From Escherichia coli O157:H7 (GTDB lineage Bacteria > Pseudomonadota > Gammaproteobacteria > Enterobacterales > Enterobacteriaceae), in assembly GCF_013167455.1 (NCBI RefSeq), contig NZ_CP038328.1: a DNA stretch of 64,000 nucleotides; one strand, written 5' to 3'. Of this stretch, positions 51,001-54,000 are shown piece after piece; the stretch's first letter is position 1, and every line of letters starts with the position of its first letter. Position numbers: made by a program.

Positions 51001-54000
51001 TTGATCTGGCATTTTATCCCCCATAGTGTGGTGAACTGTCGTTACAGTTTGTATTCCCCGGGTAAATTTGTCTGCGTAAAAAAATGGGTTGAGAAAAAAG
51101 ACAATAAATAATTAAAAATCAATATGATAGAAAACGACAGCATTAGTGTTATTTTACTTTTCCCTTATCGCTGTCGATTCTCATTATCATTCATGGCAAA
51201 AAAACAGCAAAAGAGGCCCTGGTAATGACTCCTGTCAGTAGTACATGTGTTTTCGATAAATGAACCAATGGCTTTTCGTGAATTTCCAGGGAGCGTAAAA
51301 AGCAAATCGTTTTCCGGGCAGGTCGTTTGATGTGAGTACGAAGTGTCAGATTGTTGCGCTCAATGCGCCGGGTAAATATCTTGCCGACAAGATGCTTATC
51401 CTGTGGCATTTCTCTGGTATAACTGCTCCGGTTGTCTCTGGTTATCATGCCTGCGGAGAATGGCTTCAGGAATTCCGGCAACTCACGGCATGTTTCATCA
51501 GTGCGAGGACCAAAAGTGTAAGCCAGCACACCGTCAGCTTTGGTCTTATACGCGTACCAGTGCCACTGCTGACGAGCTTTGTTTTCGACAAAACTCCATT
51601 GTTCATCAAGTTCACAGATAAGTGCCACATCGACACTGGCGGCTGGAGATATGGTTACTTTACGTGGTGAGCGTTTTTTAAAGTGAGAATGACGGTGTTG
51701 ATATCCACCTTCAGCGTTCTGGAGCTATCGCGAACCCCGGCTCCGTTATGAACCATTTCAACAATTTGCTCTTTAATGCCTGGTTTTCGGGTTTCGTAGA
51801 TGTAATTCAGTTGAAATACACGTTTGCAGGATTAGCACTGGAAACGCTCATGATCTGAGGTGCTGTGATCATAACGGTACACTTTATAGGAATTACAGCG
51901 GGGAGAATATACTGTAACTGTTGCCATATGGTCTCCAGATACCAATAGAATACAACATTAATCTATCGTCAGAAGGCATCACCGGGGCCTTCTGACATAA
52001 TCTGTTAATACGTGTACTATTACCCTGTTCAGAAAATATTGATTCAAAAATGAAAACCAGTTAACAGAAAAGCAAAATGATATAATGTTAAAATTTTATA
52101 TAGTGCAATAAAAGGAGAATGTTATGTATAATTTTATCACTATAATGTATGATGTCTTTTCATGTTTTGGTGTTCTGGCTAAAAACCAGAATAGCCGTGA
52201 CATCCGAAATATTAAAAATTTTTCCTCACATCAACATTCACTGGGCGACATGTTTGATGAATTAATAAACATTATTGATAAAGAACAAGTATTGAGTAAA
52301 GAACAACGAAAAGTTATATTTAGGAGATATGAAGATCTCTATGTTAAGCTAATGCACTATTCTGTTTTTACAGACAAAACACATCAAATAATAAAACAAA
52401 AATATTTTAATGACATTGTACCAATGATTCTCGCACTCGACATCAGGAACACATATCGCCCGGATAATGAGATGGCATTTTACTATCATATTCATTCTTT
52501 TCTCACTCAGATACCGGATAATGAGGATGATATATATCATGCTGCAAGGACATATCTGCGAAATTACGTTAAGTTATGTTTATCCGGATACACGCCAGCG
52601 AATGCGCATTTCAAAGATATCTTTGATGGCGTATATGAATTCATTCGTAATATTCGCAAAAACAGTACACCAGGAAAAACAAAACTTATCGCAACTATCA
52701 ACACATGCAAAGAAACCTGTAAACATCTGCTTTATTTAAGTAATGAAGACAAGGAAAAAATAATTTCTGACTTAGATAAAGTTCAGGTTGCATGTTATTA
52801 TCTCACTATATTACTGGCTTTCGAAAGACGAACTTCATTAACAAGCACCCTGGCAACTTTATATAAAATGCTGATAAGCGAAAGAGAAGTTTCAGAATAT
52901 GAATGCCAGTTATTATATTTAACCAACCCAATAGATGTAATGAATATACTGAACAAATACATATATTACTTTCCTAATGAGAACTCACCATTTTATACAC
53001 TGAAAATTGACAGTGCATTATCGTGGGATGCCATTGACGCAATACGAGACTATAGTATTTCTGATATTTATCTTTATCCTGAACAAAAAACAATAAATTG
53101 TGTCGTTGAGATTGAAAACATTGTCTTTGGCGGTTACATTTATACATTGAACAACGGCGTCACATTACAAAACATAGAAAACTCTTTAAAAGATTCTTCA
53201 TGCCATTATGTCTTAAATGGCTATACAGAATTTGTTAACTGTTTGAGACAACTTACTTCAGGAAAGACTGAAAGTGTTCATCGCACCATCAATAAACTGA
53301 ACTATGAGAAATTACCTTTTGGATTTATCATTGCCGCGTTTGCTATACTAAAGATAGCATTTAAAATAAAATTCAGTAAAAATCATGTAAATATCCGAGC
53401 ATTATTAAATGACATCAATTATTTTATGACTTATCAGGGCGAGTCCATTAACCTTATTTCACTGGATCACGAATACCCAGAGTCCTGTCTTCAAAATGAC
53501 ACAAACACATATTTATTAGGAAGAGTAATATTTCTGTATAACTCAATGATTTATAAGTTCATAAACTGTCAGGAACATGAAACCAATAACATTCACTCAG
53601 CTATGATAAATAACCTATTACAGGAAGTTGATATAGCCCTTGGTAAAATAAATGACATTATAGACAGCAGAAACATATCAGCCCCCCATGAACTGGCAAA
53701 TATTCTTACCCGCGAAAAAATACTTACAACACGGGAAAAAAAAGGAAACCTGATAAGCCTGTTTGATGGATTCACTTTATTCCATTGTGTTGGAATGATA
53801 ACCTTTCTTATCCATTATCTCAGAACACCTGAAGAAAAAGTTGAAAATATATTTATGTTATATGGTGCAGATAAAAACAATAAACTACGCAGAAGACTGA
53901 TTTATGACGCACTAGGAATAATTCAGTCTCAGCAGGAGTGAAGAGTTAAACAGGCAAATTATTTTTTATAAAAAGGGGATTGTTAAGTAATCCCCTGTTA

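Follow-up and report, generated by a model that had tools for sequence, protein, structure and literature searches.

Is an AT-rich orphan gene beside an integrase exchangeable cargo, or is it part of the backbone of the element that carries it? The question is raised by a 605-codon gene at positions 52124 to 53941 (+ strand) of a 64,000-nucleotide stretch of Escherichia coli O157:H7 (RefSeq assembly GCF_013167455.1, contig NZ_CP038328.1), hereafter called the window. The gene, which we name X, lies between a P4-type tyrosine integrase gene and a gene of the AlpA family. An earlier note, made from the sequence alone, had placed it in a slot of variable, integrase-proximal cargo and had offered an anti-phage or abortive infection protein, a secreted effector, or a toxin as candidates. 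We confirmed the open reading frame (ORF) exactly as described, with an ATG start and a GC content of 0.325. Its place in the element is another matter: by gene order across homologous loci, X is a conserved backbone gene tied to alpA, not integrase-proximal cargo.

Gene order links X to alpA

We compared 16 loci with homologs of X (19 to 38% identity; L002, L003, L004, L007, L008, L011, L014 to L021, L025, and L027). An alpA-family gene lies directly upstream of the X homolog, on the opposite strand and usually 60 to 250 bp away, in all 16; a DUF3987 gene comes after alpA, usually followed by a YagK/YfjJ gene. The weakest matches (19% identity, E of about 1e-4) keep the alpA-DUF3987 order, which supports their homology. 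The alpA gene of the window is 47 to 80% identical to the alpA genes beside the X homologs.

Read along the strand of X, the usual order is an integrase gene in the same direction, yfjJ, yfjI, and alpA in the opposite direction, then X, and then variable cargo. This cargo, 3' of the X homologs, includes restriction-modification (RM), SMC-like, trypsin-AAA, SLATT/GAP1/DO-GTPase, resolvase, and DUF932/YqaJ genes. Neither the flanking cargo nor the place of the integrase is constant among the loci; the integrase is mostly on the far side of the module, not adjacent to X. It is because X stands divergent beside alpA and the DUF3987 gene in every locus that we assign it to the backbone, and on the same ground the variable integrase-proximal slot of the earlier note has to be given up.

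In L004 to L006, which occupy the same ycdU site and have an integrase 96% identical to that of the window, the order is integrase, then the DUF3987 gene and alpA in the opposite direction, then X, then two Gp2-type ORFs. The L004-type subtype of X occurs in 170 further E. coli genomes. Relative to the integrase and to this SRL-PAI-like order, the block of yfjI, alpA, and X is inverted in the window, and X therefore stands beside the integrase. The integrase-proximal position is thus a lineage-specific arrangement, and the comparison of the integrase-alpA interval across islands, proposed in the earlier note, points to a gene that belongs with alpA and is not cargo of that interval. An AT-rich orphan next to an integrase is not always swappable cargo.

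The published order of the SRL pathogenicity island (PAI) is orf1, the integrase; orf2, DUF3987; orf3, rox; orf4, with "no similarity"; and orf5/6, Gp2 (PMC6980539). A 607-residue protein, P0026 (30% identical to X, phmmer E of 1e-58), occupies the position of the uncharacterised Shigella flexneri orf4 in loci that have the SRL PAI gene order beside ycdU and an integrase 96% identical to that of the window. From gene order and the published ORF table we provisionally equate P0026 with orf4, which, like X, is divergent from an AlpA-family recombination directionality factor gene, rox. The X family is an uncharacterised occupant of the regulator-side slot in AlpA-type islands, with a paralogous type in SRL-PAI-like loci.

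X is an expressed gene under purifying selection

In 500-nucleotide windows the GC content of X is 0.29 to 0.33, compared with 0.475 for the whole window, about 0.49 to 0.50 for the integrase region, and 0.425 for yfjI, and in each locus compared no other module gene has a GC content as low as that of X. Since X is always the most AT-rich module gene, it is worth recording that an H-NS-family gene follows yfjJ in the backbone of the P0055 locus (L025:3399-3800 and L026:202-603).

A putative promoter and ribosome-binding site of its own can be read for X at 52078 to 52117 (+). A perfect extended -10 element, TGATATAAT, lies at 52078 to 52086 and is overlapped by a site predicted at 52077 to 52104 in a promoter scan; a Shine-Dalgarno (SD) sequence, AAGGAG, lies at 52112 to 52117, with a 6-nucleotide spacer to the ATG. 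Downstream, a GC-rich hairpin at 53974 to 53996 separates X from the convergent integrase gene. It scored as a terminator of the integrase gene (- strand, with a T-run) and may also end the X transcript.

Compared with a 94%-identical allele (L022), X has a synonymous divergence (dS) of 0.196 and a nonsynonymous divergence (dN) of 0.037, a dN/dS of 0.19. The integrase and alpA genes of the same genome pair have dN/dS values of 0.05 to 0.06, which indicates that X is under purifying selection, more relaxed than on its neighbours. The X protein is made: the frame is expressed at the protein level, and expression was seen in uninduced cultures, which disposes of the concern that the frame might be silent. 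Literature searches for WP_000282209 and other locus tags yielded nothing of use except phosphoproteome and OI-43/48 papers. X is thus a real functional gene, as judged also by its SD sequence, extended -10 element, downstream hairpin, dN/dS, homologs down to about 20% identity, and confidently predicted fold.

A minority E. coli allele (L022:6001-7629; proteins P0004 to P0021) is 92 to 95% identical to X in amino acid sequence and ends at 541 to 546 residues. In the one copy examined, that of L022 (542 residues), a 1-nucleotide deletion near codon 540 removes the last 60 or so residues. The shortened allele may be decaying, or the truncation may be tolerated.

X is a soluble, all-helical protein without characterised relatives

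Neither the X sequence nor its family profile gave a significant match in Pfam, NCBIfam, PHROGs, PADLOC, or the PDB sequences, and 0 defence-protein families of PADLOC-DB v2 matched at E of ≤1. X is always annotated as a "hypothetical protein" (WP_000282209.1), and its orphan status stands, with no match in any annotation library. A word-indexed search of 5.8 billion proteins returned only X alleles of at least 91% identity; a word-indexed profile search with alignment A2 returned only close E. coli alleles and fragments, with no new domain fusions; and a genome scan with alignment A4, which rested on a single peptide pattern, returned 6 loci. Exhaustive phmmer searching of 1.84 billion representatives gave 34 matches at E of ≤1e-3, about 15 of them full length (570 to 690 residues) and aligned end to end at 24 to 35% identity.

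Polar positions are seldom conserved in the family alignments, and no motif looks catalytic. Conservation is highest in the block LPxGY...ALKIKLxKxxIKNG (residues 397 to 427), which is followed by N461, T464, Y472, and N473 and coincides with the only consistently basic patch, around residues 401 to 440. Two candidate motifs were set aside. The N-terminal RD.R....F..HQ resembles the Rx4-6H motif of HEPN domains; its spacing is 7 residues, and R28 and H36 are not invariant. The HxH of FYYHIH, a possible metal site, is not conserved.

An AlphaFold2 model built with 20 sequences is all-helical, with 29 helices (mean predicted local distance difference test [pLDDT] score, 84.7; predicted template modelling [pTM] score, 0.85). 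Foldseek matched this model in AFDB50 to proteins of Leclercia, Pantoea, Hafnia, Shigella, Salmonella, and Providencia at template modelling scores of 0.8 to 0.9 and to Aeromonas proteins at 0.6 to 0.76. All AFDB50 matches listed are uncharacterised, and they come from Enterobacterales, Aeromonas, Tolumonas, and Burkholderia. There was no match at E of ≤1e-3 among the viral structures of BFVD, no convincing relative among solved structures, and no significant structural or profile match to TPR or RRNPP-type helical-repeat regulators. No Pfam helix-turn-helix (HTH) family matched any of 20 family members (best, HTH_73 in one member, E of 0.085), and the model has only long helices, which are not HTH-like. 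Profile and structure-based searches, as the earlier note had advised, thus yielded no characterised relative of X, and in particular no housekeeping or phage structural protein.

A Kyte-Doolittle hydropathy check found no signal peptide or transmembrane helix, and the N terminus forms a conserved helix of the fold. Only residues 397 to 415 (2.0) and 543 to 561 exceed a hydropathy of 1.6. We ruled out a transmembrane segment at 397 to 415: homologs have S, R, D, K, or N in this stretch, and the modelled helix has a pLDDT of about 93 to 96, suggesting that this stretch is buried. Hydropathy, family alignment, and model thus bear out the earlier statement that X has no visible signal peptide, transmembrane segment, or catalytic motif. 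Toxin domains were likewise not matched, and there is no co-oriented partner ORF, with an insertion sequence (IS) remnant upstream and the terminator and integrase downstream. X is a soluble, cytoplasmic, all-alpha protein without a detectable relative among characterised proteins.

One distant member, P0051 (L011:2467-5067; 866 residues), also lies beside alpA and a DUF3987 gene and carries an N-terminal extension of about 310 residues. Residues 35 to 185 match the IS481 transposase profile (E of 2.7e-12; 47 bits, below the family cutoff of 224), in a part of the profile that we take to include the transposase HTH. The catalytic positions appear degenerate from the sequence, which suggests that a DNA-binding module from a transposase was domesticated and became joined to the helical domain. 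Together with a 930-residue AFDB relative from E. coli annotated as "HTH domain-containing," this fusion hints that the helical module may work at or near DNA.

The X family is confined to chromosomal islands

By megablast, X was present at ≥99% identity in 1,036 of 5,426 complete E. coli genomes (about 19%), including O157:H7, O111, O6:H16, enterotoxigenic E. coli, NCTC86, and the B2 strain ABU 83972. No X homolog was found among 50,697 phage genomes. Only 4 records labelled as plasmids matched X, and their sizes and strain names make them look like pieces of chromosomes. Two IMG/VR loci contain X homologs, both with the same alpA backbone. The X family is small and occurs only on integrative islands of chromosomes, for the most part in Enterobacterales and Aeromonas.

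X occupies a fixed slot and is the fastest-diverging gene of its module

Of the module formed by the integrase, alpA (rox), DUF3987 (yfjI), and yfjJ genes with X, X is the fastest diverging. It is 26 to 38% identical between loci whose alpA genes are 55 to 84% and yfjJ genes 51 to 81% identical. Between L002 and L003, identities are 38% for X, 83% for alpA, 66% for yfjI, and 72% for yfjJ; between L002 and L015, they are 35, 80, 38, and 81%. Between the window and L004, they are 30, 80, 26, and 93%, with 96% for the integrase.

The cryptic prophage CP4-57 of E. coli K-12 carries the uncharacterised gene yfjH between intA and alpA, divergent from alpA-yfjI-yfjJ as X is. YfjH has 318 residues and is absent from the 50 AFDB fold matches of X that were listed; an hhalign probability of 0.1% ruled it out as a remote homolog. 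Since CP4-57 YfjI is 40% identical to that of the window and yet has an unrelated protein in the same divergent slot, the slot beside alpA is fixed while its occupants are deeply divergent or belong to unrelated families. The Stl repressors of SaPIs and the iolg/icg genes of PICMIs, both introduced below, likewise combine a fixed slot with divergent occupants. In the PICMIs (phage-inducible chromosomal minimalist islands) of Vibrio, which are AlpA/DUF3987 elements, the iolg/icg genes of the integrase-alpA interval belong to numerous families unrelated to one another, and excision requires iolg (PMC10803314). In contrast to X, which is convergent with the integrase here and linked to alpA across its family, iolg is co-oriented with the integrase gene and overlaps it.

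The spacer between X and alpA is also conserved in part. A motif, TGTCYNCGTNRAAAAAYGG, is common to the X-alpA spacers of L002, L003, L004, and L007, just 5' of the X ribosome-binding site, and persists between loci that share only about 30% identity in their X proteins. The window copy, TGTCTGCGTAAAAAAATGG, at 51069 to 51087 (+; alignment A3), is the single zero-mismatch match in the window. It still adjoins alpA and is now about 1 kb from X because of an IS1-like remnant and extra AT-rich DNA. The motif may act as operator, promoter, or leader.

The IS1-like remnant, which the earlier note did not mention, lies between X and alpA at 51223 to 51984 (-) and encodes a frameshifted transposase; an IS1 pseudogene is annotated in the identical O157 locus. 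The remnant is diverged, with terminal repeats GGTAATGACTCC and GGCATCACC, and its right end is paired with flanking DNA in a perfect inverted repeat of 10 bp (51968 to 51977 and 51987 to 51996).

Possible functions of X

What might such a gene do? We tentatively favour a role as a nonenzymatic sensor or regulator that gates the alpA-yfjI-yfjJ excision and replication operon. X would have no enzymatic centre and would act by binding. It would be made in the integrated state of the island and would gate the divergent operon through AlpA, through the replication protein, or through DNA by way of a partner, until a phage- or host-derived signal relieves or triggers it; its rapid diversification would then reflect changing specificity for partner or inducer. 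A gatekeeper of this kind fits best with the lack of a catalytic signature, the fixed divergent pairing with alpA, expression when integrated, allele-like diversification, and fusion to a transposase N-terminal region. The motif shared by the X-alpA spacers also speaks for it.

The functional likeness would be to the Stl/Rpr master regulators of Gram-positive phage-inducible chromosomal islands (PICIs), among them the Staphylococcus aureus pathogenicity islands (SaPIs). These are divergent from the excision and replication operon, expressed when the island is integrated, and highly diverse from one element to the next, and they act by binding phage proteins (PMC6092414). X shares the divergent transcription, in the window and in the 16 loci. 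Stl/Rpr proteins have about 250 to 300 residues and an N-terminal HTH, whereas X has 605 residues, lacks any detectable DNA-binding domain, and is not homologous to them. In Gram-negative AlpA-type satellites, element silencing, the repressor or sensor upstream of alpA, and the sensing of the inducer that triggers alpA are an acknowledged gap (PMC6092414). By analogy, the X family might be this missing upstream component of island or satellite induction: a non-HTH, all-alpha sensor that would restrain the alpA-DUF3987-YfjJ operon and be released by a phage or host cue, with divergent alleles setting inducer specificity as Stl does in SaPIs. We consider this broader proposal unlikely as it stands.

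Several observations weigh against a gatekeeping role. No DNA-binding domain is detectable in X, whose helices are long and not HTH-like. About 1.1 kb, including the IS1 remnant, parts X from alpA in the window and in more than 1,000 E. coli genomes, and X stays intact, so that any control must act in trans. Other alpA-DUF3987 elements hold an unrelated protein in the X slot, as CP4-57 does with YfjH. The identity of X tracks that of yfjI in many locus pairs, which also fits a replication-linked role, and conserved synteny shows linkage, not function.

The main rival, to which we give a rather low probability, is that X is an anti-phage or superinfection-exclusion protein hard-wired into the backbone. 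It would bind a phage component, thereby blocking or sensing it, much like the morons kept next to prophage regulators. X is AT-rich and the fastest-diverging gene of its module, it is expressed from the integrated island in uninduced cultures, and it borders cargo that is often defence-like: RM genes and an SMC-like ATPase in L003, SLATT/GAP1/DO-GTPase/GASH in L008, trypsin-AAA in L007, and a TOTE archaeo-eukaryotic primase (AEP)-helicase in the window. PICMI and PICI satellites, moreover, are known to carry single-gene defences. Yet X has no PADLOC match, no recognisable effector domain, transmembrane segment, or partner gene, and no relative in the phage genomes or in genuine plasmids, the 4 plasmid records being read as chromosome pieces. 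Nor was it met apart from alpA, which sets it off from typical mobile defence genes; and we know of no published E. coli defence screen in which it surfaced, common as it is in this species. The anti-phage or abortive infection candidate of the earlier note retains some probability. The other candidates of that note fare worse. An AT-rich, horizontally acquired gene without known homologs in a pathogenicity island could be a secreted effector or free-standing toxin, but X has no signal peptide (its N terminus being part of the fold), no transmembrane segment, and no adjacent antitoxin, chaperone, or secretion gene. Environmental and commensal Enterobacterales also have members of the family, invariably at this regulatory position, and about 19% of complete E. 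coli genomes carry X intact and expressed with no partner, which makes an effector or toxin most improbable.

X might instead be an accessory factor for replication or transfer of the island, acting with the DUF3987 protein and YfjJ as a loader, an origin-recognition partner, or a hijacker of a helper phage or conjugative element. Strict linkage to the DUF3987/YfjJ module and the conserved basic patch around residues 401 to 440 agree with this, as do the near-equal identities of X and yfjI in many pairs (35 versus 38%, 36 versus 36%, and 32 versus 35%). The pair L002 and L003 breaks this codivergence, however, with 38% for X versus 66% for yfjI. X is transcribed alone and divergently from the replication operon, it is similar to no replication or packaging protein, and an unrelated protein fills the slot in CP4-57, whose YfjI is 40% identical to that of the window. 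We regard a replication factor as distinctly improbable, though less so than an effector or toxin.

X-type islands confer tellurite resistance, encode urease and Iha, and in Shigella add multidrug resistance; they are known to excise. X is a concrete candidate for the control of alpA or, failing that, for a new kind of island-borne phage exclusion.

The island and its neighbouring genes

The O157:H7 islands with X are OI-43/48 and SpLE1, and from its gene content the island in the window is identifiable as this tellurite/adherence island, OI-43/48 or SpLE1. Positions 1158 to 39239 are 99.9% identical to a stretch of the bovine E. coli strain E2863 and contain iha, terZABCDEF/terW, ureDABCEFG, a phosphoethanolamine transferase gene, and many IS66/IS3 elements. 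At the integrase-side end of this serX-integrated island, between the integrase gene and ycdU, lies an exact 14-bp direct repeat, TGGCGGTGAGGGGG (55491 to 55504, -), a copy of the 3' end of serX whose sequence has been published (PMC3064760). The opposite end of the island has the intact serX, and this is why ARAGORN finds no tRNA gene anywhere in the 64-kb window.

The X locus is flanked by ycdU on one side and by alpA, yfjI, the Gp2-type gene, and the TOTE AEP-helicase gene on the other. The integrase gene, of the SRL-PAI/OI-43/48 type, is annotated at 54128 to 55330 (-), 186 bp from the convergent X; the same gene in L022 carries the Arm-DNA-bind_3, Phage_int_M, and Phage_integrase domains. 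The alpA/rox-type gene, for an AlpA-family excision regulator or recombination directionality factor, is annotated at 50716 to 51012 (-), and its L022 counterpart carries PF05930. A presumed primase/helicase-like replication gene, yfjI (DUF3987; PF13148 in L022), lies at 48688 to 50091 (-), and yfjJ, annotated as an inovirus Gp2-type protein gene, is the last gene of the backbone module, at 47304 to 47867 (-).

Between alpA and the full-length yfjI, at 50310 to 50555 (-), a remnant encodes residues 2 to 84 of another yfjI allele, which shares 54% identity with the resident one, where RefSeq has a 117-nucleotide "hypothetical protein." It looks like a recombination scar from a swap of the replication gene. 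Directly after the backbone module, at 44789 to 47173 (-), lies the gene for a 794-residue [quoted passage not shown] with an AEP/PrimPol-like N terminus and a superfamily 2 helicase, which is probably defence or conflict cargo. Beyond ycdU and outside the island, positions 56680 to 64000 (-) encode an acyl carrier protein S-malonyltransferase, an outer-membrane lipoprotein-sorting protein, ABC transporter parts, and beta-ketoacyl synthases, a cluster that resembles a locus for the biosynthesis and export of lipid or polyketide-type compounds.

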